Shown piece by piece: positions 10,640 through 50,848 of a DNA stretch of 64,000 nucleotides. Numbering within the stretch: the first letter of the stretch is position 1; each line of letters starts with the position of its first letter. The position numbers and the translations under genes were made by a program. The notes beneath the pieces are model-generated. The model ran no database searches. It was not told the origin of the DNA and saw only the letters and a list, made by a program, of their open reading frames with translations. This DNA comes from Candidatus Woesearchaeota archaeon (GTDB lineage: Archaea > Nanobdellota > Nanobdellia > SCGC-AAA011-G17 > UBA489). The DNA is taken from positions 650,195-714,194 of the forward strand of contig CAYITG010000001.1 of NCBI GenBank assembly GCA_964366415.1. Direction: 5' to 3'.

Positions 10640-10640
10640 A

Positions 10641-10676
10641 AGAGAGATTAACTCTCTTTCTTTTTTCTTTTTCATT
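10641..10676 (+). terminator. hairpin plus oligo-T terminator after the surface protein gene
   Basis: AGAGAG-attaa-CTCTCT inverted repeat followed by TTCTTTTTTCTTTTTC. Confidence 0.45.
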
Positions 10677-10741
10677 TTTATGACCCTAGTGAATACTTTG
10701 TGGAAAACTTTATATAGTCGCATTCAAGGTGATGTGTTAAC

Positions 10742-15092: not shown

Positions 15093-15173
15093 ATTTGTAG
15101 TGAACAACGAGATAATTTTAATTTTATATATCCTCGTAACAATATTTATAAATTCGCGCTTCATTTTTCTTTT

Positions 15174-23299: not shown

Positions 23300-23353
23300 T
23301 AAATCCCTTCTTCTACGAAACCTTTAAAAGTTTCTTTCTTTGATGCCTTTCTT

Positions 23354-24772
23354 ATGCGCATCGTCTTTATTACTCCACCTTATAGCATTAGCGAACGCTA
23401 CCACACCAAAGCTAAAATCAATAAAGGTTATCTTCCTCCTTTAGGTTTAGCTTCTATAGCGACAGTACTCAAAGAAGCAGGACATCATATAAAAATTCTT
23501 GATCTCCAAGTGCTTAATTACTCTTTAGAGAACATTCGTCAAGAGCTCACCGCATTTTCACCAGATCTTATTGCACTTTCTGCTGTTACTCCCACCATTG
23601 ATAAAGCATATCTTCTTGCAAATTTTATTCGTACTCATTTTGGTGTTCCCCTTATATTTGGCGGAGTACATCCCTCTATGTATCCGGAACAGACCCTTAA
23701 AGAATGCGTAGCTGTCGATGTCGTCGTTATTGGAGAAGCTGAATATACTTTCCGCGAACTTGCTGCCCTGCTTGAAAAGGGGACTCCTCTTAACAATCTA
23801 AAAGATGTACGAGGGGTTTGCTATAGAAATAAAAGTGGCAAAATAATAAGGAATTTACCACGTCCACTTATCATGAATCTTAATGAATTACCTATAGCCT
23901 CGCGTGAATTTTTTGATATGGACAAATACATTCCCTTACCAAATCAATACAAAATTCTTCCTGTTACCAATATGATGGTTGGCAGAGGGTGTCCTTATGG
24001 GCAATGCACTTTCTGTTTTGAAGCTGGAGATTTTAAACCTCTTTATCGTCGTGTTACTGTTGATAGGGCTATTGAAGAGATTCAAATGCTTATACATAAA
24101 CATGGCATTCGAGAGATTTCTTTTTGGGATGATGTTTTTCTTATTGGAACACGGTGGACCACTGATTTTTTTGAAGCTTTAAAACGAGAAAAGATAGATA
24201 TACAATGGTCTTGTTATGGATACTTTAATTATCTTACCCATGATATGCTGAAACAAGCAGCTTCTGTTGGGTGTTGGAATATTTTCTTTGGTATTGAAAG
24301 TGGAAATCAAATGTTGCTTGACACCATCAAAAAAGGATTTAATTTAGACAAAGCAAAGCAAGTGATTGCTTGGACACGTGAAGCAGGCATTGAAACACGA
24401 GGTTCTTTTATTTTAGGATTGCCAAATGAAACACCCAAACTTGCTATGGAAACTATCAACTTCGCTATTGATCTTGATTTAGACTACGCGCAGTTTACTC
24501 TTAATACCCCCTTCCCTGGAACTGAGATGTGGAAAACAGGTGGACGATATGGGGCGATTGATACTACATTTAAAGATTACTCCGTTCATAATCCTGTTTA
24601 TTTACCGAAGGGTTATTCTACTAAGGAAGAACTTCTTGCCATGCAGAAACTTGCTTATCGTAAATTTTATTTCAGACCACATTATATCCTTAAGCACCTC
24701 AAGAGAATTCGTACTTTTACTGATGTTAAAAAATATGCTTCTGGACTACGTTTCTTAATAGGTATGCAGTAA
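23354..24772 (+). CDS. B12-binding domain radical SAM protein
   Basis: An N-terminal B12-binding-like domain is followed by CPYGQCTFC. The Cys spacing is the variant Cx4Cx2C. Confidence 0.75.
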   Translation: MRIVFITPPYSISERYHTKAKINKGYLPPLGLASIATVLKEAGHHIKILDLQVLNYSLENIRQELTAFSPDLIALSAVTPTIDKAYLLANFIRTHFGVPLIFGGVHPSMYPEQTLKECVAVDVVVIGEAEYTFRELAALLEKGTPLNNLKDVRGVCYRNKSGKIIRNLPRPLIMNLNELPIASREFFDMDKYIPLPNQYKILPVTNMMVGRGCPYGQCTFCFEAGDFKPLYRRVTVDRAIEEIQMLIHKHGIREISFWDDVFLIGTRWTTDFFEALKREKIDIQWSCYGYFNYLTHDMLKQAASVGCWNIFFGIESGNQMLLDTIKKGFNLDKAKQVIAWTREAGIETRGSFILGLPNETPKLAMETINFAIDLDLDYAQFTLNTPFPGTEMWKTGGRYGAIDTTFKDYSVHNPVYLPKGYSTKEELLAMQKLAYRKFYFRPHYILKHLKRIRTFTDVKKYASGLRFLIGMQ

Positions 24773-27448: not shown

Positions 27449-28974
27449 TTTGCTGCATTTGTTGTGTTTATAGTATACAAACAAACTTCTTCGTCCTTTT
27501 TTATTTCTTCAAAATCACATTCTTTAAATCTTTGGCATTGCGGGTCTATGGCAAGGATATTTGTCGTATTAAAAAACATCATTTCATTCCTAAACTCCAT
27601 GCACGTCAGATTGTCATTTTGTTTTGTGAATTTTTCTAACCTTAACAAGTACTCACTAGATGCTAAGGGCGGCGACCATCCTTCCGGAGTGCTTAGATTG
27701 TGGTAAATGCTTGCGTATGCATATAGTGGCTTTGAGTATGGTGTCGGATACTCTGCCGTATCTAAGGGGCCTAGAATAATAAATTTGTCATTTACCTCTG
27801 AAAATATCTCTATCATTCTTTTCTCTAAAGGAGTATTTTCTCTGAACCAGGGTGTGTATAGCATATTCATCCCAACACTCCCTATTATCACTGCAATCAT
27901 GAACCCAGGAATAATTTTTTTCTTTATGCCTTGCATGATCCATTGTTCTTCCTTGAAAAAGACTGTTAAAATGCAAAATAAGAAAAACATCAAATAAGGA
28001 TCTTGAGAAATGTTTCTTAAAAGTGGAATTAAGGTTGTTATTCTCGATGTGTATGCTGCTGCGAGTATGCCTATCGGCACATAAAACATCCTTTCTCTCC
28101 TTGGTGTATCTGTTCTTTTAAGGTAAGCATAGATAAGAATGATTAATATTAGGGGAATAATGAATGCCAGCATGTTTGTTATCATTGTTTCTTTCGTAAA
28201 TTCAAACACTCTCTTTCCTTCATGAAATGCAAGCAAAGAAGAAGCACTTAAACCCTTAAGAAAATCCAGGATCCACCATGACGCCAGCACAAATGATAAC
28301 AAGAAACTACTAACAATCATCATCCTTTCTTTTTTGTCTTTTTTATACAAGAAAAGAGAGAGAAAAAATACTGCTGCTAGAATTGTTTCTTGATAATGTG
28401 TTATTAACATTGCTGCATAAATCACGCTGCTCAAAAGAAAAATCTTGTTTATTCTCTTTTCTTTGAAATACCATATTATAGAGAATAGCAGCACTAATAA
28501 AATCAAATTTAACATTGCATGCTGCCTGCCATTCCTGATCACACTTCCTATCATTGATGCATTTGCGAAAAATAATATAAACCACGCCAGGCTACTTGTT
28601 CTTGTCAGACGCATTCTTTTACCAAAGTAAAGACTGACCAATCCAGCAATGATAAAGAGAGCAACCATAGAAGCATATGTTGCAACATTCACATTACCAA
28701 AAAGCGTATACAAAGGATATGCGAAGAAATACCATCCAGGAGAGTTTATTTGAAGGTGAATGAATCCATTATACCAATAGTGACAAAATTCATGAAAACC
28801 ACATACTTTTAGAAAATGCAGTTGCGCCATATACGCGCTGAGATCATTTGTAGCATCGAATGGAAATGTTCCTATTAATTTTGCCTGATTGACTAATCTT
28901 ACTATCAGATTTATACTTCCTATGAGTATAATGGCAATTTTCCAATGTTTTTCCACTCCTTCTTGGATTGACAT
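27445..28974 (-). CDS. polytopic membrane protein (possible GT-C glycosyltransferase or polymerase-like)
   Basis: It is 509 aa with ~12 TM segments and sits in the glycosylation island. It has no diagnostic motif. Confidence 0.35.
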   Translation of the reverse strand: MSIQEGVEKHWKIAIILIGSINLIVRLVNQAKLIGTFPFDATNDLSAYMAQLHFLKVCGFHEFCHYWYNGFIHLQINSPGWYFFAYPLYTLFGNVNVATYASMVALFIIAGLVSLYFGKRMRLTRTSSLAWFILFFANASMIGSVIRNGRQHAMLNLILLVLLFSIIWYFKEKRINKIFLLSSVIYAAMLITHYQETILAAVFFLSLFLYKKDKKERMMIVSSFLLSFVLASWWILDFLKGLSASSLLAFHEGKRVFEFTKETMITNMLAFIIPLILIILIYAYLKRTDTPRRERMFYVPIGILAAAYTSRITTLIPLLRNISQDPYLMFFLFCILTVFFKEEQWIMQGIKKKIIPGFMIAVIIGSVGMNMLYTPWFRENTPLEKRMIEIFSEVNDKFIILGPLDTAEYPTPYSKPLYAYASIYHNLSTPEGWSPPLASSEYLLRLEKFTKQNDNLTCMEFRNEMMFFNTTNILAIDPQCQRFKECDFEEIKKDEEVCLYTINTTNAAN

Positions 28975-29026
28975 TTCTTTTCCTTTATTCGAAATCCTTT
29001 TATATACTTTGTTTACGCCTTTTATT

Positions 29027-30031
29027 ATGCTCCTTATCTTTTTTTGTGCATTTTTGAGCTTTATCGTAGTTTGGCTTCTTACTCCTTGGCTTATTCGTTA
29101 TTTACGTCGTATTGGACTTCTTGTTCAAGATGCGAATAAGGAACATAAACCTCTTGTTCCCTTGTCAGGAGGGCTTGTTGTTTTTTCTGGCTTTTTTACT
29201 GGCATGATGTTTTTTATTTTTCATCGTACTTTTCTCTCTCAACATGTTACTGGAGGCATCCTTTTAGATACATATGATCTTCTTCTGCTCTTAAGCGGGA
29301 TTACCACTATTCTCATTATTACTTTTGTTGGATTTCTCGATGATCTTGTCATCAAAGCAAATAAAGAAAGTTCTTCTGGTTTACGTCAATGGCAAAAACC
29401 ATTACTCACTCTTGTTGCTGCTGTTCCTTTGATGGTCGTCAATGCAGGTGTTGACACCATGATTGTTCCTTTCATTGGCCGCGTTAATTTTGGCATTCTT
29501 TATCCTCTCTTACTCGTTCCTTTGGGTATTGTTGGGGCTTCGAATATGGTCAATATGCTTGCTGGTTTTAATGGCATGGAAACCGGCATGGGGCTTGTTT
29601 ATATTGGCATGTTGGGACTCTATGCTTATACTCATGATCGCTACCTTGCCGCGTTGATTGCTCTTCTGTTATGGGTTGCCCTCCTTGCGTTTTTTTTCTT
29701 TAACAAATATCCTGCAAAGATTTTGCCGGGAGATTCATTGACTTATCTCTTAGGCGGAAGTTTGGCCGTCATTGCTATCTTGGGAAATATGGAACGAGCC
29801 GCCATTATTGCTTCTATTCCCTTCTTTATTGAATTCCTTTTGAAGATGCGTGGCAAATTAAAAGTAGCTAGTTATGGATACTACAAGAATGGTTGCGTGA
29901 TGTCACATTATACTAAAATCTATTCTATCCCTCATTTCTTCACTATCACCGGCAAATTCACGGAACGACAAATCACTTTGTTTATGATGCTCATCTCTCT
30001 TTTCTTTTCCTTATTGATGTGGGTCGTGTGA
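29027..30031 (+). CDS. UDP-GlcNAc:dolichyl-phosphate GlcNAc-1-phosphate transferase family (AglH/WecA/MraY-like)
   Basis: TM1 is followed by RRIGLLVQDANKEHKPLVPLSGGL. It has a DDxxD-like motif (FLDDLV) and an NMVNMLAGFNGME motif. The start was chosen at the internal ATG because the longer ORF would overlap the 5' end of the divergent gene. Confidence 0.75.
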   Translation: MLLIFFCAFLSFIVVWLLTPWLIRYLRRIGLLVQDANKEHKPLVPLSGGLVVFSGFFTGMMFFIFHRTFLSQHVTGGILLDTYDLLLLLSGITTILIITFVGFLDDLVIKANKESSSGLRQWQKPLLTLVAAVPLMVVNAGVDTMIVPFIGRVNFGILYPLLLVPLGIVGASNMVNMLAGFNGMETGMGLVYIGMLGLYAYTHDRYLAALIALLLWVALLAFFFFNKYPAKILPGDSLTYLLGGSLAVIAILGNMERAAIIASIPFFIEFLLKMRGKLKVASYGYYKNGCVMSHYTKIYSIPHFFTITGKFTERQITLFMMLISLFFSLLMWVV

Positions 30032-30032
30032 T

Positions 30033-31301
30033 ATGGACTTACGAACATTACTTAAAAAAAATGGACTTGTTCGAGATAATATTATTTTTTTCATTACTTC
30101 GATGGCTCTTAATTTGATTGGATTTTTTTATCATGCATATATGGGCAGAGTTCTTGGACCAACTCAGTATAGCATTTTAGGCGTATCACAGACTTTGTTA
30201 TACCTCCTTAATGTCATTCTCAATGTCATTCAAACTTCTATTGCCAGATTTATTTCAAAATATAAAGCACTTAAAGATGAGGCTTCTATGAACTATTTAT
30301 TTGTGCATGGACTTTCTTATCTTTTTTTCTGGGGAGTTCTTTCCTTGGGACTATTCTTGCTCTTAGGTGTTTTTTTAACTGATTTTTTACATATCCCTTT
30401 TGTTGTTTACCTTTACTTAGGGTTGATTGTTCCCTTTGTATACCTGCTTGCCCTTACGCGTGGGCTTTTACAAGGATTGCAATCTTTTATTAGTTTAGGA
30501 TTGAATAACATTAGTGAAGGCGCTATTAAGCTTGCTGTAGGCGTTGGACTTGTTGTTTTTGGATGGGGTGTTGGTGGAGCTGTTTTAGGTGTTACACTTT
30601 CTTATGTCGGCGCTTTTCTTTTTTCATTATATCCTTTGCGCCACCTCTTTGGACGCCCACAGAAAAAAGTTGAACGCAAGCTCTTAATAGATTATTCACT
30701 CCCAGTATTATTTGTTTTGTTAACACTCACTGCTTTGTATAGTTTTGATGTTCTTTTAGTGAAGCATTACCTTACTGAGCATGAAGCAGGACTTTATGCC
30801 GCTGCTTCCCTTATTGGAAAAATAGTTTTCTTTGCCACACTTTCTGTTGCTATGGTCATGTTTCCCAAAGTTGCAGAATCTTTCGAACGCAAATCTGCTG
30901 TCCATGTCAAGAAAGTGCTTAATACTTCTTTGTTCTTTATTTTTCTCATGTCTTTAGGCATTTTTGTTTTTTATCTCTTATTTCCTCAATTTATTGTTCT
31001 TGTACTCTTTGGAAAGAATTATCTTGAGATTACGCCTATTTTGTGGTTGTTTGCTTTATTGTATTGTATCTTTTCGTTTATTTATTCATTAAGTATGTAT
31101 AACCTTTCTATTCACCGTTATTCTTTTGTTTATTTTATCATTCTGATGAACATCGTTGAGGCTGGATTGATTGTATTGTATCATAACACCCTTCGTACTG
31201 TCTTAACTGTTGTTGTTAGCGTTATGGCTGTGTTGTTGATGTATTTGGTGTGGTACACTTATAGTTATAATCTTGAAGAGAAGATGAGAAGCAACGCATG
31301 A
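30033..31301 (+). CDS. MOP-superfamily oligosaccharide flippase (Wzx/AglR-like)
   Basis: It is 422 aa with ~12 TM segments and an N-terminal motif typical of polysaccharide biosynthesis protein flippases. Confidence 0.6.
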   Translation: MDLRTLLKKNGLVRDNIIFFITSMALNLIGFFYHAYMGRVLGPTQYSILGVSQTLLYLLNVILNVIQTSIARFISKYKALKDEASMNYLFVHGLSYLFFWGVLSLGLFLLLGVFLTDFLHIPFVVYLYLGLIVPFVYLLALTRGLLQGLQSFISLGLNNISEGAIKLAVGVGLVVFGWGVGGAVLGVTLSYVGAFLFSLYPLRHLFGRPQKKVERKLLIDYSLPVLFVLLTLTALYSFDVLLVKHYLTEHEAGLYAAASLIGKIVFFATLSVAMVMFPKVAESFERKSAVHVKKVLNTSLFFIFLMSLGIFVFYLLFPQFIVLVLFGKNYLEITPILWLFALLYCIFSFIYSLSMYNLSIHRYSFVYFIILMNIVEAGLIVLYHNTLRTVLTVVVSVMAVLLMYLVWYTYSYNLEEKMRSNA

Positions 31302-32097: not shown

Positions 32098-33858
32098 ATG
32101 GATCATTACATCCTTGGCATGACTTTAGGACACAATGCAACTGCAGCCATTTCTCATAATGGCCATATTATTGCCTGCGCTAGCGAAGAAAGATTTGCAC
32201 GAATAAAAAACATTTATGGCTATCCTGAAAAAGCTGTGCGCTATTGCTTGCATCAGACAGGCATCACCCCTGCGGAATTGAGCTTGGTTGTTTTATCTAG
32301 CCATATCACTCCTCCTTTGAAATTAACTTCTGGAGGATTACGAGAAGAATCGCGTGAGGATTCTTTAAGTTGGTTTACTCTCTTTTCAAAAATTAGGAAT
32401 CATGCAGGAAAAGTGAAGTCCTTTGAAACTTTTGGATATAAAAATATTGCACCTCTTTTATCTAAAATGACTCATAAAAAAAGAGTTGCTATTTTAAGTT
32501 CCTTACTTGAGATACCTCCGGAGAAATTTGTTTCTAGTGAACACCATCTTACTCATGCCTTCTCCGCTCTATTCTCTAGCCCTTTCTTTCAGACATCTCA
32601 ACAGAAAATCCTTGCAATTACTGTTGATGGAGAAGGGGACATGCTCTCTTCAAGTGTAGGCATTTTTGATCCTGCGACCTTATATTATCATCGCATTGCG
32701 CAATCCTCTTACTCGGAATCCTTAGGACATTTTTATAGCGCAGTGACTTCCTATTTGGGAATGAAAGTTTTAGAGCACGAGTATAAAGTTATGGGACTCG
32801 CTCCTTATTCATATACTCCGCAGGCAGATACTCTTTACAATAAACTTAAAGAATACTTATGGGTTGATGATGATTTACGCATTCGAACCAAGATTCATAG
32901 CCATCATTTTCATACCTTATTTCAGGATCTTTTCAAAGGTATACGGTTTGATTATATTGCTGCAGCTGCGCAAAAACTTGTTGAAACACTTCTTGTTGAC
33001 CTTGTTAAAAAAGCAGTCAAAAAAACTGGCTTGTCCACTGTTGTTTTAGCGGGAGGAGTTTTCATGAATGTCAAGGCAAATCAGGAAATCTTGAAATTGG
33101 AAGAAGTGAAAAAACTTTTTATCATGCCTAGTTGTGGAGATGAATCTTTGCCCATTGGTAGCTGCTATTATGGTACATGGCTTCAACACAAGGAATTACT
33201 TAAAACTTTGCAGCCTTTAACAAATCTTTATTTAGGACCAGAGTATTCCCAGGAAGATATCGAACGTGCACTGCAACACCATTCTTTTGATTATAAAAAC
33301 TATGACAAAAAAATTAATATTGAGGTATCGCGATTATTAGCTGAAGGACATATTGTTGCGCGCTTCGATGGCAGAATGGAATTTGGAGCTCGCGCTTTGG
33401 GAAATAGGAGCATCTTAGCCGATGCGTCGAATGGTGATGTTATTGATATTATCAATCGCATGGTTAAGATGAGAGATTTCTGGATGCCTTTTGCTCCTTC
33501 TGTCTTAGAAGAATATGCTCAGCTTTATATTAAAAATCCTGAACTTCTTCAGAAAACTCAACCCTATTTTATGATGCACGCCTTTGAAACTACTCCTTTA
33601 GCGCAAAAAGATTTGAAAGCAGCTATGCACCCTTATGATAAAACTATTCGCCCCCAGATTGTTCACAAGGCTCATAACCCTAAATATCACGAACTCTTAA
33701 CCTATTACATGAAAAGAACAGGAAGATATGGCTTCCTTAATACCTCTTTCAATATTCATGGCGAGCCCATTGTATGCAGCCCTGAAGATGCACTCCATAC
33801 GCTTAAAAATTCTGGTTTACATTATCTTTCTCTGGGTAATTTTTTAGTTTGGAAGTAA
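32098..33858 (+). CDS. carbamoyltransferase (NodU/CmcH family)
   Basis: The N-terminus reads ILGMTLGHNATAAISHNGHIIACASEERFARIKN, the classic NodU start. The length is 586 aa. Confidence 0.8.
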   Translation: MDHYILGMTLGHNATAAISHNGHIIACASEERFARIKNIYGYPEKAVRYCLHQTGITPAELSLVVLSSHITPPLKLTSGGLREESREDSLSWFTLFSKIRNHAGKVKSFETFGYKNIAPLLSKMTHKKRVAILSSLLEIPPEKFVSSEHHLTHAFSALFSSPFFQTSQQKILAITVDGEGDMLSSSVGIFDPATLYYHRIAQSSYSESLGHFYSAVTSYLGMKVLEHEYKVMGLAPYSYTPQADTLYNKLKEYLWVDDDLRIRTKIHSHHFHTLFQDLFKGIRFDYIAAAAQKLVETLLVDLVKKAVKKTGLSTVVLAGGVFMNVKANQEILKLEEVKKLFIMPSCGDESLPIGSCYYGTWLQHKELLKTLQPLTNLYLGPEYSQEDIERALQHHSFDYKNYDKKINIEVSRLLAEGHIVARFDGRMEFGARALGNRSILADASNGDVIDIINRMVKMRDFWMPFAPSVLEEYAQLYIKNPELLQKTQPYFMMHAFETTPLAQKDLKAAMHPYDKTIRPQIVHKAHNPKYHELLTYYMKRTGRYGFLNTSFNIHGEPIVCSPEDALHTLKNSGLHYLSLGNFLVWK

Positions 33859-34914
33859 ATGAAAAAAATCATCATCTTGATGCTGGCTGGAATTGGGGAC
33901 AGCTTGTTAGCTACACCTATGCTTACTTCCCTTCGGAAAATGTATCCTGATGCACACATTTCTGTTTTGGTTATGTATGATGCTGTCCGTGATACTCTCC
34001 TCAGAAACAAAGATATTGACGAGGTAATCTTTTTTGATTTTATGCGGCAAGGATATTGGAAATCTCTTTTCTTTGCTCTTCGCCTGAGAAAAAATCATTA
34101 TGATCTTAGTATCTTGGCTTATCCTGCAAATCGATTTCAGCACAACTTCCTCAGTTTTGTGATAGGTGCCAGGAGACGCATCGCGCACCTTTATGATGTT
34201 CATCGTTTACGATCATTAAGCTTCTTGGAAACAGAACGCCTTCCCATAAATGCACAAACCCACACCATTGATGAGAACTTAAAACTCCTCACGTTTTTAG
34301 ATCACGATGTTCCAACATCCTCACGAAAAATGACTTTTTCTTTAACTCAGGAAGAGAAAAATTTTGCTGAAAATTATTTAAAAGAACGTGCCATTACAAA
34401 ACATGATTTTATTATTGGGATCCACGCCGGATCAAGTGAATTAGCAGGAATGACTTTAAAACGTTGGCCAGCAGAAAAATTTGCCCAGCTCTGCGATCGA
34501 CTCATTGAGCAAAGAAAAGCAAAAATTCTTCTTTTTGGCGGTAACAACGAAATTGCTCTCAAGCAGGAAATTGCTGACCTTATGACACATAAACCTCTTT
34601 TTGTCAATAGCATTACTTTTTTTCAAAGTGTAGCATTAATTTCTCGATGTTCCGGATTTATATGTAATGATACTGGTCTTATGCACCTCGCCTCATTCTT
34701 TAATATTCCTACTGTTGTTGTTACTGGGCACATCAATCCTATCAAGACACAGCCACTACATCATCGTTCACGTATTCTTGTTCCTGATTTTGTTTGCAAG
34801 CCTTACCATATTGGTGAAAACTTAACTTGTCTCTATCAGGGAACTCCAAATTATTGCCTTAATAGGATTTCTGTTGATGATGCTTATCGCGCCTTTATGG
34901 GGGTACTATCATGA
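33859..34914 (+). CDS. GT9 family glycosyltransferase (heptosyltransferase-like)
   Basis: The N-terminus has LAGIGDSLLATP and the C-terminus has CNDTGLMHLASFFNIPTVVV (DTGxxHLA). Confidence 0.65.
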   Translation: MKKIIILMLAGIGDSLLATPMLTSLRKMYPDAHISVLVMYDAVRDTLLRNKDIDEVIFFDFMRQGYWKSLFFALRLRKNHYDLSILAYPANRFQHNFLSFVIGARRRIAHLYDVHRLRSLSFLETERLPINAQTHTIDENLKLLTFLDHDVPTSSRKMTFSLTQEEKNFAENYLKERAITKHDFIIGIHAGSSELAGMTLKRWPAEKFAQLCDRLIEQRKAKILLFGGNNEIALKQEIADLMTHKPLFVNSITFFQSVALISRCSGFICNDTGLMHLASFFNIPTVVVTGHINPIKTQPLHHRSRILVPDFVCKPYHIGENLTCLYQGTPNYCLNRISVDDAYRAFMGVLS

Positions 34915-35702
34915 AACCTCGCGTTTCTATTATTCTTACTACAAAAAATAATGAACACATTATTGAACGATGTTTGCGCTCTGTTGCTGAGCAAACGTAT
35001 CCTTATATTGAACTTATTGTTGTTGATAATTTTAGCATAGACCAAACACTTACAATTGCGCAACGCTTTACAAAGAAGACTTATTCTCACGGCCCTGAAC
35101 GAAGTGCACAACGTAACTATGGTTTTCGTCATGCGCAAGGAGACTATTTATTTTTTATTGATTCTGATATGGAACTTCAGCGTGATACTGTTCAAAAATG
35201 TATGCATATTACTAAGCAAGGCCATGGAGCCCTTATCGTTGATGAGCAGTTTATTGGCAGAGGATATTGGTCTCAGTGCAAAGCCTTGGAGAAACGATGC
35301 TATACTGGAACACAAGATGCAGAAGCGGCACGCTTTGTCAAAAAAACTTTATTTTTAAAGATCAAAGGATATGATGAACTTCTTACTGGCCCTGAAGATC
35401 TTGATCTTCATAAACGACTCATGCCTCTTACTTCTCTAGGACGTGCGTCTGGGATTATTCATCATGATGACTATTTGACATTCTCTTCTTTGCTCAAAAA
35501 ACGATTTTACTACTCGAGATCATTACGACGCTATTTTGCGAAACATCCGCAAGCGAAGCAACAAGAATTTCGCTTTATTCGTGTAGCTTTTTTGAAACGA
35601 TGGAAAATTTTAGCTGCTGATCCTTTTCATTCTTTAGGCCTCATCTTTCTCCGTGTAGGCGAGGGATTTGCTACTATACTTGCTCTCTTGAGGACACGTT
35701 AG
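34911..35702 (+). CDS. GT2 glycosyltransferase
   Basis: It has VSIILTTKNNE...VVDNFSIDQT and a DSDM DxD motif. Confidence 0.75.
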   Translation: MKPRVSIILTTKNNEHIIERCLRSVAEQTYPYIELIVVDNFSIDQTLTIAQRFTKKTYSHGPERSAQRNYGFRHAQGDYLFFIDSDMELQRDTVQKCMHITKQGHGALIVDEQFIGRGYWSQCKALEKRCYTGTQDAEAARFVKKTLFLKIKGYDELLTGPEDLDLHKRLMPLTSLGRASGIIHHDDYLTFSSLLKKRFYYSRSLRRYFAKHPQAKQQEFRFIRVAFLKRWKILAADPFHSLGLIFLRVGEGFATILALLRTR

Positions 35703-37239
35703 CAGTATATATTGCAGGATTTATTGAGAACACCGTTAGAATAGGAATCTTCTGCTCTTCATCAATAAATGGCCTGTAGCTTATCTCTGGTTTGAAAATG
35801 TGCTGGTTTATGTAAGGGAATACTATCTTCCATTCGTTTGCAGCATTGATATTTGCAAATATATTCATCACAATATACTTCGGTTTGTCTTTTTTCATTG
35901 CTTCAATTAATTCTTCCGGTGAGTTTCCAGGTATACCTCTAACTTCTCGTACCGCTGCATATTGCAACTCTGCTTGCGTGTGGTAAGAGTATATTTTATC
36001 TTCTGGAGATGAATGCTCTTTAATCCATTGGCCTGCTTGTTTTACCTGAATAAATGACATACTTTTTTCATCAATGACTTTATTTGTATGTATCATATTC
36101 TGGTAAAATCCAATAGCTAAAAATGCCACAACAATTGCTATGGCAATGGCTTTGTTGTATCTTTTAACATGATCAAATATCGACATCAAACCTTTTCCAG
36201 CAATAATAAACATAAAGGGGTACATTAAGAACAAATATCTCTCTTCAATATATGTGCCATATCCAATGCTGACAATGTACAGAAATGGAATGAGGAATGT
36301 TAGTAAGACTAGCAAATTAGATTTTAATTTTTTTTCTTTATTTTTCCATAAGAGATCAAATCCTATAGTCAATTCAATTAAGAGCAGTGCAATCCCTATA
36401 ATGAACAGCGTCAAAAAGGCATAATGCACGTGCGGAAATGTTGTATTGATATAATCCATTAACGTTTGCCATAATGAGCGGGGACTTTCGGCTCTTCCAC
36501 CAATGGCGCTTACGTAGAAAGCAAAAGGATGTCCAAACTTTTTTATTTCATATATTAAAAATGGAAGAGCAGCAAGCACCCCTAATCCTAGACTTATCCA
36601 AAGATCTTTATTTTTTAATGGTTTTAGTTTATCTGTCACAAGAAGATATGCTATTAAAATGAATCCTAACAATGCTCCTGTAAATTTCATTAAGAATGCT
36701 AATACGATTACAGGAATGCATAGCCACAATGCCCACTTTTTTTTATGATCATACCCTTTGACGAACAACCATACTCCAAGTAACCATAGTGTTGCAACCG
36801 GCACATCAACCAATAAGCGATAACTGAAAAAAGTGAATGACCAAAATGACGATAGCATAAGAGCCGCAATCAAACCAACATGTTTGTTGTATAATTCTTT
36901 TCCAATGAGATATGTAAGGATAATCGCTACTATAGATGATACGAATGGAACGAGACGCATTATCATTTCTGGAAGATGCGCCTTGAACATCGTCGCTAGC
37001 ATTAATGGAAGCAATAAGGGACGTAGCGGATTAATGTCCCATGATGGTGTTCCGAAGGCCCACATACGAGCAATGTTCAAGTAATCTCCTTCATCCCACC
37101 AGACTGGTTGATCCCATGTTACGAAGAAATAATACAGTCGTATTGACAACATGATAACGGCAACAACAATAATGAAAGAACGATGAGGGTCTTTAATCCA
37201 TTCTAAAACCTTTTTTTCACTCTTTTTTATATCTACCAT
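35674..37239 (-). CDS. GT-C fold membrane glycosyltransferase (ArnT/PMT-like)
   Basis: It is 521 aa with >10 TM segments. A WWDEGDY acidic motif sits in the first external loop. Confidence 0.5.
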   Translation of the reverse strand: MVDIKKSEKKVLEWIKDPHRSFIIVVAVIMLSIRLYYFFVTWDQPVWWDEGDYLNIARMWAFGTPSWDINPLRPLLLPLMLATMFKAHLPEMIMRLVPFVSSIVAIILTYLIGKELYNKHVGLIAALMLSSFWSFTFFSYRLLVDVPVATLWLLGVWLFVKGYDHKKKWALWLCIPVIVLAFLMKFTGALLGFILIAYLLVTDKLKPLKNKDLWISLGLGVLAALPFLIYEIKKFGHPFAFYVSAIGGRAESPRSLWQTLMDYINTTFPHVHYAFLTLFIIGIALLLIELTIGFDLLWKNKEKKLKSNLLVLLTFLIPFLYIVSIGYGTYIEERYLFLMYPFMFIIAGKGLMSIFDHVKRYNKAIAIAIVVAFLAIGFYQNMIHTNKVIDEKSMSFIQVKQAGQWIKEHSSPEDKIYSYHTQAELQYAAVREVRGIPGNSPEELIEAMKKDKPKYIVMNIFANINAANEWKIVFPYINQHIFKPEISYRPFIDEEQKIPILTVFSINPAIYTANVSSREQV

Positions 37240-37306
37240 TCTATGAATTGGCCTCTTTTATCTATAAAAAGTTATGGATTGCTTCGCATTTTCCTCTCCT
37301 TGATAA

Positions 37307-38362
37307 CTATCGTGCTGTTGCAATTCTTGTCCATTTGTCATTATATTGGCTACGTAGAATTCTTGTTTCATAGAATACTCTTATCCACATATATAATCTT
37401 GCTACCATGAGCAACGCTGTCCATCCATATTCTTTTATTGTATGCGGATAAGACCATGCTAAAAAAAATCCTTCTATCATTTCATTTGTAAATGATTTTA
37501 CTCGTGGTATTTCTTTTATATCAACATATTTTTTCAATGTTTCATGGGCTTTTGCTGTGCGCACCCTTTGCTTTAACCAGTCATCCCAGGTTGTTGGATT
37601 CTTCACAAGAACTTGCGCGTGCTCCGCATATGCAATATCATACTCTTTCTTTCTGAACATGTATGGGATGATTGTATCTTCCGCAACATCAACTGGGATT
37701 TCCTTTATTACATGATTGCGGCATGCGAATAAATATCCGGTGCACTCAAGAAACTTTTTTTCAGACTCACGTTTTCTTATTTCATGCGCACCTGCATCTG
37801 CCAAAAGATGCGACCAATATCCCAACATTGTATTTTTCGCATTTGCAGATATAACACGACCGGATACACAACCTACTTTTGAATTTTCAAATGGCCTGAT
37901 TATTTCGTTAATTGCATGCGGAAGCAGAGTTACATCACCGTCAGTAAATACTATAATCTTTCCTTTCATCTCTTTTAGCGCATCATTGATGGCTGCAGCT
38001 TTTCCCTTTCCTTGATCTTTTATCCAATGCACTGGATATCCTCTTTGTGCATACATGTGTGTGAGATCCTCTGCTTCTTTATCCGGAGAAACGATGACTA
38101 TTTCATAAGCAGCTTTAATCTCTTGAGTTATGATTGCCTGAATAGCGGCTGCAAGATGAGGCTCATGATGGGAGGTCATCATAATAGAAATATCTGGCTT
38201 TTCCGATGTAGAGTGCTTGTTTGAGAGGGATTTTAAGGCCATTTTTTTGCCTTTTGAAGGACTTTCTTTCATCCTATTGTTTCTTCTTTTCATTCGTGTG
38301 ATGGCTTGCTTTCTATGCATATCCTGTTCTTTACTCTTACTATGATGATCTTTTTTTAGCAT
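37307..38362 (-). CDS. GT2 glycosyltransferase with a basic N-terminal extension
   Basis: The GT2 core has a DGD motif (IIVFTDGDV). The N-terminal ~60 aa are Lys/Arg/Ser-rich and low-complexity. Confidence 0.6.
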   Translation of the reverse strand: MLKKDHHSKSKEQDMHRKQAITRMKRRNNRMKESPSKGKKMALKSLSNKHSTSEKPDISIMMTSHHEPHLAAAIQAIITQEIKAAYEIVIVSPDKEAEDLTHMYAQRGYPVHWIKDQGKGKAAAINDALKEMKGKIIVFTDGDVTLLPHAINEIIRPFENSKVGCVSGRVISANAKNTMLGYWSHLLADAGAHEIRKRESEKKFLECTGYLFACRNHVIKEIPVDVAEDTIIPYMFRKKEYDIAYAEHAQVLVKNPTTWDDWLKQRVRTAKAHETLKKYVDIKEIPRVKSFTNEMIEGFFLAWSYPHTIKEYGWTALLMVARLYMWIRVFYETRILRSQYNDKWTRIATAR

Positions 38363-38445
38363 TTTTATGATTACTTCTTTTCTGTATAAAAAGGTTATTA
38401 CTTACAAGTAAAAAGTTTTATAAGAATCAGCATGATAGCATTGTT

Positions 38446-39345
38446 ATGGCAGAGAAGATTTTAGTTGTATTACTACATGGCATTGGAGATAGTTTGATGG
38501 CGCAACCGGCGCTTCATGCTCTCAAGAAAAAATATCCTGATAGTTCTTTAACCATCATGACGATCAAAAATAATGTATTCAAGGATTTGTGGAGCATGGA
38601 TAAAACTGCTGATGAGGTATTATTTTCTTCTTTAGAACATAATCCTTCTTATGGCAATCCTTTATTCTGGATTGGAGACTATTGGACAATACGACGTGAC
38701 ATTCGGCGTGCAGTGAAGGCTCACGGATTTACGCGCGTGTATTTTGTGAAAATGTTTTTGATGTCTGCTAAGATTTATTCTTTTTTACATTTACCGCGTT
38801 ATGAAGAACATAAAACATTGAAAATTGCACGTGAACTTGATGTTGTACTCAGTGACCAACGTTATTCGCTTGCTTATCATAACGACGATCGCATGTGGGC
38901 AAAGACTTTTTTGTCTGAACGAAAGTTGGACCCAGATGTTTTAATCGGCATTCACACTAGTGGATCGCATCCATCGAAATCTTTGTCTGCTGAAACTATA
39001 AAATCTTTGGTTGAAACTCTTCGTTCTTTAGGATACCAGATTGTTGTTTTTCATAGTGCATCCTCTTATGAACGTGATAAAAAAAGCTTGCCTCCTGACG
39101 TTCCAGTTTGCATGCCTGATTCTTTACTGCATACTGCCGCTGTTGTTGATCAGTGTAAAGCTTTGATCTGTGTTGACTCTGGCATTGGGCATCTTGCAGC
39201 TGCATTGAATAAAAAAGTGTTAAGTATTTATTTTAAAAATGTGTGGATGAAGAATTCTTTAGCCTTGGGAGATCACATTGTACCTTATTTGTACACTAAG
39301 AATATTCCTCGCTTATTAGAATATGTGCAATCATTTCTTCAATAA
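38446..39345 (+). CDS. GT9 family glycosyltransferase (heptosyltransferase-like)
   Basis: It has LHGIGDSLMAQP and CVDSGIGHLAAALNKKVL. Confidence 0.55.
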   Translation: MAEKILVVLLHGIGDSLMAQPALHALKKKYPDSSLTIMTIKNNVFKDLWSMDKTADEVLFSSLEHNPSYGNPLFWIGDYWTIRRDIRRAVKAHGFTRVYFVKMFLMSAKIYSFLHLPRYEEHKTLKIARELDVVLSDQRYSLAYHNDDRMWAKTFLSERKLDPDVLIGIHTSGSHPSKSLSAETIKSLVETLRSLGYQIVVFHSASSYERDKKSLPPDVPVCMPDSLLHTAAVVDQCKALICVDSGIGHLAAALNKKVLSIYFKNVWMKNSLALGDHIVPYLYTKNIPRLLEYVQSFLQ

Positions 39346-40458
39346 TGTTCGTGCTTTTGTGATTACTTCATCTGGCGTGATTGATCGCATGCATTCGTAA
39401 CCTTTGTTGTATATACAGAAATAACGCCGACAGCCCACACACCCTTCTTCTTTCCATATATATGCGGGGCTCTTTCCTGTTGGACCCCAAAATGTTGGAA
39501 TGGTAGGACCAAATAATGTCAAGACAGGCTTGTCAAATGCTGAGGCAATATGTGTTGCTGAAGAATCAATGGTGATAAGCAGGTCTAGATTTTTTATTAA
39601 CGACATGAACTCATCGAATGTTGTCTTTCCTGTTAGATTAACTGTTCCTTTAACATTGGAGAGTTCATTGAGAATGCTTTGCACTTGGTCTCTTTCTTGC
39701 TTTACTCCCATCATGATTATTGTTGCTTTTCTTTTTTGGTAATATTCTATCACTTCTTTCCATTTTTCTTTATACCATCGTTGAGAATAATGCGCAGATG
39801 CAGCATTGATCCCTATCCAAGGCCGAGGATATTTCTTCAGTATTTTTTTTATTCTTTTTTCTGCCACTGTTGATGGAAAGAGTTCAAGATGTTTGTCTTT
39901 CGTTTCGATGCCAATACTTCTGATGACATCGAGATTATCTTCTATTTTATGTTGCTCTTTATTATTTGGAAATATTTTTTTGTTGAGAAAAAATCCTTTG
40001 CCATATGTTATTCCTGTTTTTGTGCCGCCAATCCTATACTTTACTTTTCCAAGCAATAACAATAAACTTATTTTCCATGATCCTGGATGGAGCATGATTC
40101 CCAGATCATACTTTTTTTCCCTTAGTATATCCTTTGTTCGTGAAAATGTTACGTATGGAATACACTGTTTAATGTTTTTGTTTCCTTTTAGGACATCTTC
40201 CTTTCCTTGTTTTATTAACACGTCAATTTCTGCATCTTTGAAGTGTTGCTTCAATGCTTTTAATGTAGGCGTACTAACGATGAGATCCCCATAGTTCAAT
40301 AATTCAACAACAAGAATTCTTTTAACGCTCTTAGGAAATGACTTAAACTTAAATGGATTTACTAATAAATAGATAAGATAATCTATGTTCTGCATGCTAT
40401 CTCGTATGTAGTCTTCTATTTTTTTTATTATGTAAATGCCCATAACATATCCATTCAA
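39331..40458 (-). CDS. GT9 family glycosyltransferase (heptosyltransferase-like)
   Basis: It has LNYGDLIVSTPTLKAL and TIDSSATHIASAFDKPVLTLFGPT. A C-terminal Cys cluster reads CVGCRRYFC. Confidence 0.6.
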   Translation of the reverse strand: MNGYVMGIYIIKKIEDYIRDSMQNIDYLIYLLVNPFKFKSFPKSVKRILVVELLNYGDLIVSTPTLKALKQHFKDAEIDVLIKQGKEDVLKGNKNIKQCIPYVTFSRTKDILREKKYDLGIMLHPGSWKISLLLLLGKVKYRIGGTKTGITYGKGFFLNKKIFPNNKEQHKIEDNLDVIRSIGIETKDKHLELFPSTVAEKRIKKILKKYPRPWIGINAASAHYSQRWYKEKWKEVIEYYQKRKATIIMMGVKQERDQVQSILNELSNVKGTVNLTGKTTFDEFMSLIKNLDLLITIDSSATHIASAFDKPVLTLFGPTIPTFWGPTGKSPAYIWKEEGCVGCRRYFCIYNKGYECMRSITPDEVITKARTLLKK

Positions 40459-40521: not shown

Positions 40522-41703
40522 ATGAATATTCTTTATGTTGCCCCGGAAATTACGCTTCCTGGTTCAGATGGCGGATCTGCCCATGTTGCAGGAAAACTTT
40601 TATCTCTCCAAAGATTAGGCCATTTTATTATTCTTCTTTGTAAACATTCACCAGGACAAACATTTTTCGAACGAAAACATTCTATTTTTACTCTTCGCAT
40701 ACCTCTTCCTGACATTTTTCTTTTAAAAAACCTTGAACTTATTCTTCTCCCTCTTTTCATTCTCCCCTTTTTTTTAATACGATATCGTATCGATCTGGTC
40801 TATGAACGAGGGAGAATATTTGGAGGTATTGGCGTATTTTTAGCATTTTTGTTTCATATACGCTCAATTTATGAACTTAATGAACCTTATTCGGATATTC
40901 CCTTACTTCTTGGAAGATTTTCTTCTACATCTCTGATCAGTAAATTTATGCAGAAATGGCATCAATGCGCTGTTCGTCTGGCGACTCTTGTTACAGTCAC
41001 GCATGCATCACTTATTCGTCACGGTATTGCCCCAGCAGAAAAAACTATCGTTATTGACCATGGCGTTGATACGTCCCTATTTTTTCCAACTCCTTCACAC
41101 ATACGTCGTAAATATCATCTTCAAAAGAAATTTGTTATTCTCTATAGCGGTAGTTTCGCACCTTGGCACTCTTGCGATCGCATAATTCTAGCTGCACAAC
41201 TTCTTCGTGAACAAAAAGATATTGTTTTTATCCTTGTAGGCAAGGGCGACATGTTTGAACGCTGTCGTATGCTTGTAAAACAATTTGGTTTAGAGCGTTC
41301 TGTTATATTCTCAGGCCCTGTTCCTTATCGTGCTATGCCTGCATATATTAATGCTGCTGATGTTTGCCTTGCACTTTTTGATCGCACTTATCCCCCATTC
41401 TTAAAATATTCTTTTTTTTATTCTCCCATGAAGATTAATGAGTATCGTGCATCCGGTAAACCAGTTATTGCCAGCAATTTTGGCAAGCTCACAACTCTTA
41501 TTACTCATGGCCGCCATGGACTCTTAGTTAATGAGCAGCACCCTCAAGATGTTGCTTCTTCTATTATAAAATTGTTTCATAATCCTTCTCTCTGTAAAAA
41601 AATAGGAAATAACAACCTTAAAGATATTCAACAACATTATCTATGGGATCTTATAAACCGCCGCATCTTACGTGAGCTTCAGCAACGAACGTCATCTTTT
41701 TAA
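40522..41703 (+). CDS. GT4 glycosyltransferase
   Basis: The N-terminus MNILYVAPEITLPGSDGGSAHV and the C-terminus EYRASGKPVIASNFG...HGRHGLLV are typical of GT4. Confidence 0.75.
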   Translation: MNILYVAPEITLPGSDGGSAHVAGKLLSLQRLGHFIILLCKHSPGQTFFERKHSIFTLRIPLPDIFLLKNLELILLPLFILPFFLIRYRIDLVYERGRIFGGIGVFLAFLFHIRSIYELNEPYSDIPLLLGRFSSTSLISKFMQKWHQCAVRLATLVTVTHASLIRHGIAPAEKTIVIDHGVDTSLFFPTPSHIRRKYHLQKKFVILYSGSFAPWHSCDRIILAAQLLREQKDIVFILVGKGDMFERCRMLVKQFGLERSVIFSGPVPYRAMPAYINAADVCLALFDRTYPPFLKYSFFYSPMKINEYRASGKPVIASNFGKLTTLITHGRHGLLVNEQHPQDVASSIIKLFHNPSLCKKIGNNNLKDIQQHYLWDLINRRILRELQQRTSSF

Positions 41704-48866: not shown

Positions 48867-49880
48867 ATGAGTACTGTTATTAAGGTATCTGTTCCTGGAC
48901 GTGTTTGCTTAGTTGGAGAACATTGTGATTATGCTAAGGGAATGTCTATTGCCTTACCACTTCAACACCATATCACTTTGTATGGAGAAAAACGCCCTGA
49001 TCAAACTGTTTTATTTCTTACTGCTATGGAAGATAATGCATATAAATTAAGTTTTCCTCTTCATGATATTTCCATACCGGATGATAATCCTTTACGTTAT
49101 TCTGCTGCTGTTGTTGATGTCATGAAAAATCGTGGTTATTCTATCGGAGGCGTTGAAGCCATAATGAAGAGCAATTTACCTTTTAAAAAAGGCTTGGCCT
49201 CTTCTGCCGCTGTTGAAGTTGCCACTGTTCGCCTTTTCGATACACTTTATCGCCTTGATTTATCTCTCGATCAGATTGCTGAAATTGCTTATGATGCAGA
49301 ACGAAATCGTCTTGGAATTGGTTGCGGCAGAATGGACCAACTTGTTGCTGCTTATGAATCTTTGATAGCGATAAATTATGAAAAAGATACACCTACTGTA
49401 ACACGATTACAACATTCTCCCGTTCCTATGTATCTTCTTGTAGGTATTCCTCTTGTTACTAAACGCGCTTTACAGCTGATGCTTACGGAATCTAATCGTG
49501 CTTATTTACACCCGCAATCGCAAACAGATCGCGACTTTGGCAGAGCACTTGATGACCTGATCCCCAATGAAGTTGTTCGCCCATTCATTGACGCAGTTCA
49601 GCAAGGTAATATTTCAGCTGTTGGTGATCTTTTCAGAAAAAACCAAGAAATTTATGATCAATATTTTGTTCCCGTCTGTGAAAGCTTTGATTCTCCCATC
49701 CTTTCTTCTTTTTTGAAAATTGCACTACAACATGGAAGCATTGGGGAGAAATGGACTGGCGCTGGAGGTTCAGGCGCTTTTATCTGTCTCGCTGAATCTG
49801 AGGAAGCAAGAATAGACCTTCAACAAGCTATAGAACGCCAATCTTCTATTGATGTTAAATTTGTAACTGCAACTCTCTAA
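48867..49880 (+). CDS. GHMP-family sugar kinase, galactokinase-like (sugar-1-kinase)
   Basis: Motif 1 PGRVCLVGEHCDY resembles the GalK signature GRVNLIGEHTDY. Motif 2 is KKGLASSAAV. Confidence 0.75.
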   Translation: MSTVIKVSVPGRVCLVGEHCDYAKGMSIALPLQHHITLYGEKRPDQTVLFLTAMEDNAYKLSFPLHDISIPDDNPLRYSAAVVDVMKNRGYSIGGVEAIMKSNLPFKKGLASSAAVEVATVRLFDTLYRLDLSLDQIAEIAYDAERNRLGIGCGRMDQLVAAYESLIAINYEKDTPTVTRLQHSPVPMYLLVGIPLVTKRALQLMLTESNRAYLHPQSQTDRDFGRALDDLIPNEVVRPFIDAVQQGNISAVGDLFRKNQEIYDQYFVPVCESFDSPILSSFLKIALQHGSIGEKWTGAGGSGAFICLAESEEARIDLQQAIERQSSIDVKFVTATL

Positions 49881-49882
49881 CT

Positions 49883-50848
49883 ATGACTCTTTTCCTCCTT
49901 GATTTACCGCAACAAAGAATTTCTCTTGAAGAGCTATGTTTCTCTTTAACATCCTGTCAACATACCTTTACTGAAGAAATTCGTGACACTTACCGAGAAC
50001 TTATTCAACGTTTTTATGAAGATCATCGAAAAAGCACTCCACTACAATATGACCCTGATTCTAACCCTATTTTTACCTTAGATTCTTTTTGTTCTTCTGG
50101 AAAAAGAACCTTTTCTTTAGGCAGTGTTGAATTTAAGGACTATTTTGCTTTACGCAATCTTCTTTATCGGACAAAGGAAGATGGACGTTTACTTCGACAA
50201 TTTGTTCCTTTAAGCATGACTGCTACTTTAGAAACTGCTGACCATTTTTTGGTGCTTGGACATCGCAAAGGAAATCATCTTTCTGATCGCTATTTACCCC
50301 CTGCTGGTTTTTTGCAGTATTGTTCAAATATCACTTCGGATTACTTCAGACAGAAATGCGCTGAAGAATTTTCTGAGGAGTTAGGCATAGATTTTAATGA
50401 TGTTTCCTATATTGGCCTGACAGGTGATACTCGAGATTCGTTCCTCGACACTTGTACTTTTTATGGCCAGACTTCTTTGACAAGAGCCGAAGTTCAGAAA
50501 GCTTGGGAGTCTCGCGGTGCTAAGGATGAACATTCTCATCTTATTTACATTCCTTCTTCCTTAGAAGCCATTAGTGCATTCCTCCATGGAACTTTTACTG
50601 GAGAAGTTAATCCTTCTATGAATATTCATTTTGAGAATGGTATTTGTATTTCCGGTCCTCGAGAAATTTTAGGCAAACGCTATCAACAGATTGAAAATGG
50701 TGTTGGCGCTTATGCAGCTTTCCTTTCTTTGTCTCAACCTCTTGCTGAAGTCCAGTCATTACTTCATTCCCTTGCTTCTGCAGGCATTATTGAAGGAGTT
50801 GTAATGAAAAATATTAATGATGAACAGCCCTATCTTCTTTCTTCTTAA
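49883..50848 (+). CDS. hypothetical protein (possible degenerate Nudix-like fold)
   Basis: It starts 2 nt after the kinase gene. The segment LVLGHRKG..YLPPAGFL...DYFRQKCAEEFSEELGI loosely resembles the Nudix box but lacks canonical residues. Confidence 0.35.
   Translation: MTLFLLDLPQQRISLEELCFSLTSCQHTFTEEIRDTYRELIQRFYEDHRKSTPLQYDPDSNPIFTLDSFCSSGKRTFSLGSVEFKDYFALRNLLYRTKEDGRLLRQFVPLSMTATLETADHFLVLGHRKGNHLSDRYLPPAGFLQYCSNITSDYFRQKCAEEFSEELGIDFNDVSYIGLTGDTRDSFLDTCTFYGQTSLTRAEVQKAWESRGAKDEHSHLIYIPSSLEAISAFLHGTFTGEVNPSMNIHFENGICISGPREILGKRYQQIENGVGAYAAFLSLSQPLAEVQSLLHSLASAGIIEGVVMKNINDEQPYLLSS

Follow-up and report, generated by a model that had tools for sequence, protein, structure and literature searches.

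A stretch of 64,000 nucleotides of contig CAYITG010000001.1, assigned to a Candidatus Woesearchaeota archaeon and called here the window, carries three genes, GT9-A, GT9-B and GT9-C, whose products appear to be genuine inverting GT-B glycosyltransferases (GT) of family GT9, as judged from sequence searches and, for B and C, from structural models. The genes are part of a conserved cassette in an archaeal glycosylation island, and on balance we consider it somewhat probable that their products transfer heptose within an AglB-dependent pathway. A more specific proposal is put forward tentatively: the AglB-dependent N-glycan of Woesearchaeota may have a conserved core that contains heptose, possibly O-carbamoylated, with up to three anciently diverged bacterial-type GT9 enzymes adding it to a dolichol-linked intermediate. 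For the host itself, we infer the donor, the lipid-linked acceptor, the order of the steps and the N-linkage of the product.

An earlier note on this DNA had recognised three GT9 proteins by their motifs, and this assignment was borne out. All of them exceeded the gathering cutoff (22 bits) of the Pfam profile PF01075 (Glyco_transf_9): GT9-A (351 aa) scored 96.6 bits (E = 1.9e-27), GT9-B (299 aa) 55.7 bits (E = 5.9e-15, C-terminal half only) and GT9-C (open reading frame, ORF, of 375 aa) 130.5 bits (E = 8.6e-38). The N-terminal and C-terminal motifs read GIGDSLLATP and DTGLMHLAS in A, GIGDSLMAQP and DSGIGHLAAA in B, and YGDLIVSTP and DSSATHIASA in C. Public gene callers begin GT9-C at an ATG five codons past the TTG, which gives 370 aa, and exact look-up of the TTG-start form returned no record. 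Sequence searches of the PDB with A, B and C matched GT9 enzymes only (3TOV, WaaF 1PSW and, for C, WaaC), the E-values for 3TOV being 4.4e-23, 7e-6 and 4e-18, respectively; the matches of A to 3TOV and to 1PSW (3.1e-16) spanned its full length. Since the Pfam match of B was confined to the C-terminal half, B and C were modelled from orthologue alignments. Each AlphaFold model (predicted local distance difference test, pLDDT, 92.6 for B and 89.9 for C) showed a complete two-domain GT-B fold, and Foldseek placed 3TOV (E = 3.3e-16 for B and 6.9e-21 for C), WaaF (1PSW) and WaaC (6DFE, 2H1H) first and TibC next. 3TOV, a GT9 protein of Veillonella parvula, is thus the best match in both sequence and fold (for A, by sequence only); being bacterial and uncharacterised, it carries no information on donor or acceptor. 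Both models also gave high-ranking structural matches (E = 2e-13 to 1e-8) to subunits of the plant chloroplast NADH dehydrogenase-like complex–photosystem I supercomplex (NDH-PSI; 9GRX chain 1, 7WFF chain a, 7F9O chain 6), which suggests that plants use a GT9-like fold as a structural subunit.

The evidence for heptose comes from related loci (L numbers). While a contig scan with the single C protein found one locus only, L003, a metagenome scan with the family-C alignment yielded 65 loci, and heptose genes were then sought by a motif scan and NCBIfam searches. The motif search gave no exact match to the GxSTT nucleotidyltransferase signature, and the enzymes were found by the HxGH motif instead. 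In L039 (997-2718, minus strand) a 573-aa fusion protein combines a heptose-1-phosphate adenylyltransferase (rfaE domain II, 2.7e-47) with a GT9 domain whose nearest counterpart is family A, and the same locus encodes GmhA and two further GT9 proteins. A fourth GT9 family lies immediately beside gmhA-hldE in L029 and L039, two loci assigned solely by the 62-63% identity of their GT9 to protein P0060; a run of small ORFs in L039, checked for ribosomal proteins, gave no family matches. In L017/L075 a heptose-7-phosphate kinase gene (rfaE domain I, 1.2e-73) immediately precedes the gene of a C orthologue that shares 50% identity with C, in a cassette whose initiating phosphoglycosyltransferase (PGT) is ~60% identical to that of the window.

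The GT9 of a further locus, L067, is identical to P0060, which NCBI names Ca. Woesearchaeota, and its public counterparts L072/L073 (GCA_018302785.1) share the upstream synteny of the window (AI-2E transporter, RimK, diphthamide synthase, SpoIIM, AglB). In L072/L073, AglB is followed by genes for a family-C GT9 (in L072 directly beside AglB), a GT4, a nucleotidyltransferase, a B12-binding radical S-adenosylmethionine (rSAM) enzyme, a GT2, GmhA (SIS), HldE (PfkB+CTP_transf), a GT-C enzyme and a family-A GT9. The HldE proteins of these relatives matched at 6.5e-132 and 3.2e-134, the latter over the full length of the bifunctional model (448 bits against a cutoff of 521), and GmhA at 1e-59 (3e-57 in L067). 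L067 and L072/L073 were taken as archaeal because of their NCBI label, their STT3 gene and their synteny with the window. One candidate locus, L063, which combines GmhB with a kinase, was not used as evidence because of its doubtful domain of origin, its SRP54 fragment scoring slightly better on bacterial Ffh; the kinase (9779-11083), a homologue of heptose-7-phosphate kinase that matches rfaE domain I at 3.6e-98, has a cupin-like C-terminal extra part of ~120 aa and is followed by GmhB. Considering the linkage to heptose genes, and above all the fusion, ADP-heptose is the best-supported donor for the woesearchaeal GT9 families A and C, and the presence of heptose-activation genes at the same place in relatives indicates that these archaea probably have a heptose-containing surface glycan.

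The residues D13, K192, E222, D261 and H266 of WaaC, whose signature is D(T/S)(G/A)xxH (PMC3559599), were mapped by means of a WaaC alignment and orthologue alignments of the three families (18 sequences for A, 17 for B and 30 for C). The catalytic aspartate D13 corresponds to D14 in A (16 of 18), D15 in B (17 of 17) and D58 in C (30 of 30), while the aspartate and histidine of the signature correspond to D271 (18 of 18) and H276 (14 of 18) in A, D244 and H249 (17 of 17 each) in B, and D298 (30 of 30) and H303 (29 of 30) in C. E222 is represented by E231 in A (18 of 18) and by E or D at position 255 in C (29 of 30), K192 by K201 in A (18 of 18) and K178 in B (17 of 17). The signature of C is D-(T/S)-S-x-x-H (DSSATH) and matches the variant D(T/S)(S/A)xxH reported for the D,D-heptosyltransferase WahD (PMC3559599). 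In GT9-C, C340, C343, C348 and C356 are conserved across the family and lie in an insertion of the C-lobe for which the model is less confident; family A has the invariant C313, C324 and C333 in the same region. TibC carries an FeCys4 "iron finger" formed by C339/342/358/370 (PMC4358343), and the conserved cysteines of GT9-C may likewise form a metal site, as far as the alignments can tell.

Several points weigh against heptose as the donor in the host, and part of them would suit enzymes that kept the GT9 fold but switched donor to a hexose, an N-acetylhexosamine (HexNAc) or a modified deoxy-sugar, in an organism that makes no nucleoside diphosphate (NDP)-heptose. Homologues of GmhA, HldE, HldA and GmhB were not found in the 64-kb window (best tblastn E = 0.05), nor were heptose-pathway genes in the 9 kb past its right end (73 kb in total), and the loci that share the complete cassette with A, B and C (L001/L080, L002, L036, L081) showed none in the 21-27 kb available. 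The small genome size of DPANN archaea (0.91 Mb in one relative) also fits a donor switch; against it, 73 kb is less than 10% of a genome of ~1 Mb. The loci that do contain heptose genes differ in make-up from the window, having no B orthologue and no carbamoyltransferase, and their HldE and GmhA lie slightly below the equivalog cutoffs. The NCBIfam equivalogs for heptosyltransferases I/II/III and RfaQ were not reached either, the best scores being 106 (cutoff 134.6), 53 (185.3) and 124 (467), so all three proteins are GT9 members and not orthologues of the lipopolysaccharide (LPS) enzymes. Among the mapped residues, C has Q, H, N or P and never K at the position of K192, which in WaaC contacts O5/O6 of heptose and is typical of L,D-heptosyltransferases, yet is not universal among heptosyltransferases (PMC3559599); B, a strongly diverged offshoot specific to its lineage, has not conserved the residue equivalent to E222. 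Moreover, donor specificity cannot be read from a GT9 sequence, and the island encodes other sugar-modifying enzymes, with FdtA and a formyltransferase just past the window. Two of these enzymes were tried as members of the GDP-heptose route and rejected: the GHMP kinase (48867-49880) scored 28.6 bits as HddA (cutoff 600) and is closest to galactokinase, and the NTP_transferase (50814-51620) scored 41 bits as HddC (cutoff 300). A donor switch is nevertheless rather unlikely in our view: in several related lineages gmhA, hldE or hldA is physically linked to genes of families A and C, a GT9-adenylyltransferase fusion exists, the heptose-contacting aspartate and histidine of the signature are conserved, and a characterised GT9 enzyme with a non-heptose donor was not found in the literature examined, which is absence of evidence only. 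The suggestion of heptose in the earlier note is supported by gene linkage and fusion in relatives, and finds no counterpart in the 73 kb of the host or in the available DNA of the full-cassette loci.

The cassette comprises approximately 13 genes, in the order PGT, flippase, GT2, carbamoyltransferase, GT9-A, GT2, PMT_2, GT2, GT9-B, GT9-C, GT4, GT2 (Table 1), and this order is kept in five or more further assemblies at ~50% amino-acid identity (range 42-67%), among them L001/L080 (a circular contig of 909,730 bp), L002, L036 and L081 (GCA_002506165.1). AglB (STT3) lies directly upstream of it in L080 and L081, while L003, L010, L011, L013 and L014 contain reduced versions with family C only. 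The conserved order makes the cassette look like a stable core pathway and not a hypervariable island. The pairwise identity of A, B and C is only 22-26%, thus they represent three old GT9 lineages and not recent duplicates. Family A has bacteria among its relatives at a closer distance than B or C (Ignavibacterium at 37% identity, besides Delongbacteria and Clostridiales); family C forms ~60 clusters among Woesearchaeota-type sequences, followed by a gap down to ~25% identity with named bacteria; family B is tiny, with 4 representatives at or above ~300 bits and 19 at E<=1e-30 among 1.84 billion. In a neighbour-joining tree calculated without support values, bacterial sequences interleave between A, B and C, and family A groups with those of Ignavibacteria, Delongbacteria and Clostridiales. 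A bacterial origin of the GT9 genes is plausible, with this unrooted tree serving as an indication only. The Ignavibacterium protein, the named bacterial sequence nearest to GT9-A (L004/L005, 6874-11065), is encoded directly downstream of a 991-aa TMEM260-like GT-C gene and upstream of a methyltransferase gene, outside an LPS core cluster, and this bacterial pairing of GT9 with GT-C resembles the archaeal one. The statement of the earlier note that GT9 enzymes are almost exclusively bacterial holds for the characterised enzymes only, as GT9 homologues are common in Woesearchaeota.

The host belongs to the DPANN archaea (Woesearchaeota/Nanoarchaeota) and comes from Hainich groundwater, contigs of which hold exact copies of window proteins. 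Homologues of GT9-C with 40-69% identity are named "Candidatus Woesearchaeota archaeon", and a partial protein 100% identical to C is named "Nanoarchaeota archaeon". The 45-kb glycosylation island of the window encodes a PF00953 initiating transferase, two flippases, many GT2 and GT4 enzymes, GT-C (PMT_2) enzymes, four B12-rSAM enzymes, methyltransferases and sugar-modifying enzymes (a GHMP sugar kinase, an NTP_transferase, epimerases/dehydratases and GFO/IDH oxidoreductases). Together with AglB bearing the WWDYG motif, an S-layer-like protein, diphthamide synthase and the woesearchaeal relatives, this agrees with the archaeal glycosylation context that had been proposed for the locus. GT9, gmhA and hldE are typically bacterial, and outside DPANN the named sequences closest to family A come from bacteria, which could raise the suspicion that bacterial DNA was mis-assembled into an archaeal contig or taken for one. 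This explanation is effectively refuted: GT9 genes in overlapping frames are embedded, on one contig, among those for the WWDYG AglB, the S-layer-like protein and diphthamide synthase, the G+C content is even (0.35-0.43), and different samples yielded the same arrangement in independent assemblies, among them the circular 0.91-Mb contig and Woesearchaeota metagenome-assembled genomes at NCBI.

Table 1. Genes of AglB and of the GT9 cassette in the window, with their family matches and orthologues in related loci
Product	Coordinates	Strand	Matches and features	Orthologues
AglB/STT3 oligosaccharyltransferase, 891 aa	17354..20029	+	STT3 2.4e-19; NCBIfam archaeo_STT3 9.7e-27; WWDYG at 613-617	44% identical to AglB of L067
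PF00953 polyprenyl-phosphate HexNAc-1-P transferase (MraY/WecA/AglH-like; PGT)	28889..30031	+	Glycos_transf_4 3.3e-33	58-62% identical: L002, L003, L010, L011, L014, L017
Wzx/AglR-type flippase	30033..31301	+	Polysacc_synt 1.2e-15; begins 1 nt past PGT gene	
GT2, 254 aa	31298..32062	+	Glycos_transf_2 6.6e-21; 4-nt overlap with flippase gene	
NodU/CmcH-type O-carbamoyltransferase	32098..33858	+	Carbam_trans_N 9.7e-41; Carbam_trans_C 3.5e-56	61-65% identical, same position: L001, L002, L036
GT9-A	33859..34914	+	PF01075; start abuts carbamoyltransferase stop, gap 0	
GT2, 263 aa	34911..35702	+	Glycos_transf_2 1.7e-25; 4-nt overlap with GT9-A	54-58% identical
GT-C membrane glycosyltransferase (PMT_2/ArnT-like), 521 aa	35674..37239	-	PMT_2 2.9e-16	58-63% identical: L001, L002, L036
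GT2, 351 aa	37307..38362	-	Glyco_tranf_2_3 9.5e-20	beside GT9-C relatives in most loci
GT9-B	38446..39345	+	PF01075; rare divergent GT9 lineage	
GT9-C	39331..40458	-	PF01075; convergent with GT9-B, 15-nt overlap	
GT4 (GT-B, "group 1")	40522..41703	+	Glycos_transf_1 4.7e-24	37-43% identical, beside GT9-C: L001, L002, L003, L010, L011, L013, L014, L016
GT2, 243 aa	41728..42459	+	Glycos_transf_2 3.8e-25	59-67% identical: L001, L002, L003, L014, L016

The features of an AglB-type cluster, that is, AglB with WWDYG, an initiating phosphoglycosyltransferase and a flippase, are all present in the window. In the proposed pathway, the PF00953 enzyme would prime the glycan on dolichyl phosphate, and GT9-A, GT9-B and GT9-C would elongate it with the GT4 and GT2 enzymes at the cytoplasmic face, each GT9 acting by inverting transfer with the aspartate of the N-terminal GD as the presumed base and the nucleotide sugar presumably held by the D(S/T)(G/S)xxH loop. 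The carbamoyltransferase coupled to GT9-A would O-carbamoylate one sugar and the Wzx-type flippase would carry the intermediate outward, where the PMT_2 GT-C enzyme may add sugars from dolichyl-phosphate donors. These donors are probably the products of the 243-aa GT2, whose size and context suggest a dolichyl-phosphate sugar synthase feeding the GT-C enzyme. Finally, AglB would hand the glycan to Asn of surface proteins. The genes from PGT to the 263-aa GT2 form a tight run with gaps of 1, -4, 35, 0 and -4 nt, and GT9-A is translationally coupled to the PGT-flippase operon. The conserved abutment of the carbamoyltransferase gene on GT9-A suggests, by analogy, a carbamoylated sugar, which could be heptose; the pair is kept in every full-cassette locus.

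The earlier note had placed the GT9 genes next to AglB, which is not correct for the window, as AglB lies 13.8 kb upstream of GT9-A. This distance leaves room for the idea that the GT9 enzymes do not feed AglB and take part either in cytoplasmic protein glycosylation, similarly to TibC/Aah, or in the synthesis of a lipoglycan or non-protein polymer that is flipped and polymerised independently. TibC was among the structural matches of B and C, and the four conserved cysteines of family C lie in the C-lobe insertion, where TibC has its FeCys4 finger (PMC4358343); C also matches TIGR04414 weakly, but with 28.3 bits against a cutoff of 200, and its model opens with a long helix (residues 10-33) instead of the TibC beta-barrel. 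The two flippases and several GT-C enzymes of the island indicate that more than one product is possible, and MraY models are the best matches of the PF00953 enzyme, near whose gene a D-Ala-D-Ala dipeptidase is encoded. On the other hand, GT9-A is coupled to the PGT-flippase operon, and the cassette or a GT9 gene stands directly downstream of AglB in L080, L081 and L072. Taken together, an AglB-independent role appears improbable, and transfer of heptose within the AglB-dependent pathway remains the reading that we prefer.

Further genes were noted in the island and its surroundings. In NCBIfam, the PF00953 enzyme matches MraY models best, that of the archaeal pseudomurein MraY among them, although none of the scores reaches its cutoff, and the region 14019-15725 encodes a RimK-type ATP-grasp ligase and a D-Ala-D-Ala dipeptidase (Peptidase_M15, 1.1e-33); the ligase, the dipeptidase and the MraY-like transferase give hints of peptide-containing envelope chemistry. 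Genes for B12-binding rSAM enzymes, of which the island has four, lie in the window at 21731-24772, 51645-53171 and 60175-61791, and rSAM homologues flank family-C GT9 genes in many related loci (L025, L030-L035, L038, L040, L042); these enzymes of the island may modify sugars or lipids, for example by methylation. The island goes on for 9 kb past the right end of the window (L078, 11715-21209), with genes for LPG_synthase_TM, a PglF-like dehydratase, an rSAM-SPASM enzyme, a formyltransferase, FdtA (3,4-ketoisomerase), a HAD hydrolase and another PMT_2 protein, and the co-occurrence of FdtA and the formyltransferase suggests a 3-formamido-3,6-dideoxyhexose. The ORFs near the S-layer-like gene at 1827-5282 (1151 aa), 5797-6765 and 10742-12368 had no Pfam matches and presumably encode lineage-specific surface proteins.

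The nearest characterised relatives of the three enzymes are the LPS heptosyltransferases WaaC, WaaF and WaaQ (GT9; 2H1H, 6DFE, 1PSW), with which they share PF01075, the GT-B fold, the GD aspartate, the D(T/S)(G/A)xxH loop, a likely location at the cytoplasmic membrane face and a probable lipid-anchored acceptor; the linkage to gmhA-hldE in relatives is also as in bacteria. In contrast, identity to these enzymes is 17-23%, below every equivalog cutoff, K192 is replaced in C, and the genes of the window belong to an AglB cassette with carbamoyltransferase and GT-C enzymes. Profile scans of the window proteins revealed no Kdo (3-deoxy-D-manno-octulosonic acid) or lipid A genes, and as an archaeal host has no LPS, Kdo or lipid A, the acceptor presumably differs and is probably dolichol-linked. 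The bacterial autotransporter heptosyltransferases (BAHT) TibC and Aah offer a precedent for a GT9-like core that uses ADP-heptose on a non-LPS (protein) acceptor, and their Cys4 site lies in a C-lobe insertion, at a sequence position similar to that of the family C cysteines, whereas GT9-C has no N-terminal beta-barrel, falls far short of TIGR04414 and has no autotransporter substrate. For the carbamoylation step, a precedent is the LPS core of Pseudomonas, where HepII is 7-O-carbamoylated by WapO (PA5005), encoded beside heptosyltransferase genes (PMC8005017). The likeness lies in the clustering of heptosyltransferase and carbamoyltransferase genes; WapO acts in a bacterial LPS core, and the carbamoyltransferase of the window has NodU as its best NCBIfam match, far below cutoff.

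As in the Agl clusters of Haloferax, Methanococcus and Sulfolobus, AglB, the initiating phosphoglycosyltransferase, cytoplasmic glycosyltransferases, the flippase and steps dependent on dolichyl-phosphate sugars are encoded in a cluster, but an Agl pathway using GT9 enzymes was not found described in the literature searched. The N-glycan of Thermoplasma contains heptose, for which the source names no transferase (PMC11407970). Archaea do have functional enzymes for NDP-heptose (PMC11461863, PMC11573728), and why archaea make manno-heptose was declared unknown by the authors (PMC11573728). Our literature searches on GT9 in archaeal glycosylation or DPANN, and on heptosyltransferase or ADP-heptose in DPANN or Woesearchaeota, found no relevant paper, although automatic annotation at NCBI and JGI already labels such woesearchaeal proteins GT9 or heptosyltransferase. 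What is new is the setting in which a known enzyme family occurs, together with its likely acceptor; in themselves the three proteins are unremarkable GT9 members from uncultured organisms, with heptose as the putative donor in this genome.

The results provide a testable link, with named candidate enzymes, between archaeal heptose synthesis and AglB-dependent glycosylation. If the proposal is true, archaeal protein glycosylation would have its first assigned heptosyltransferases, the question of why archaea make NDP-heptose (PMC11573728) would receive a concrete answer, and the acceptors of GT9 would extend from Kdo-lipid A and autotransporters to dolichol-linked intermediates. The conserved cassette also points to a stable, lineage-wide core of the surface glycan in uncultivated DPANN symbionts, whose cell surfaces mediate attachment to the host.

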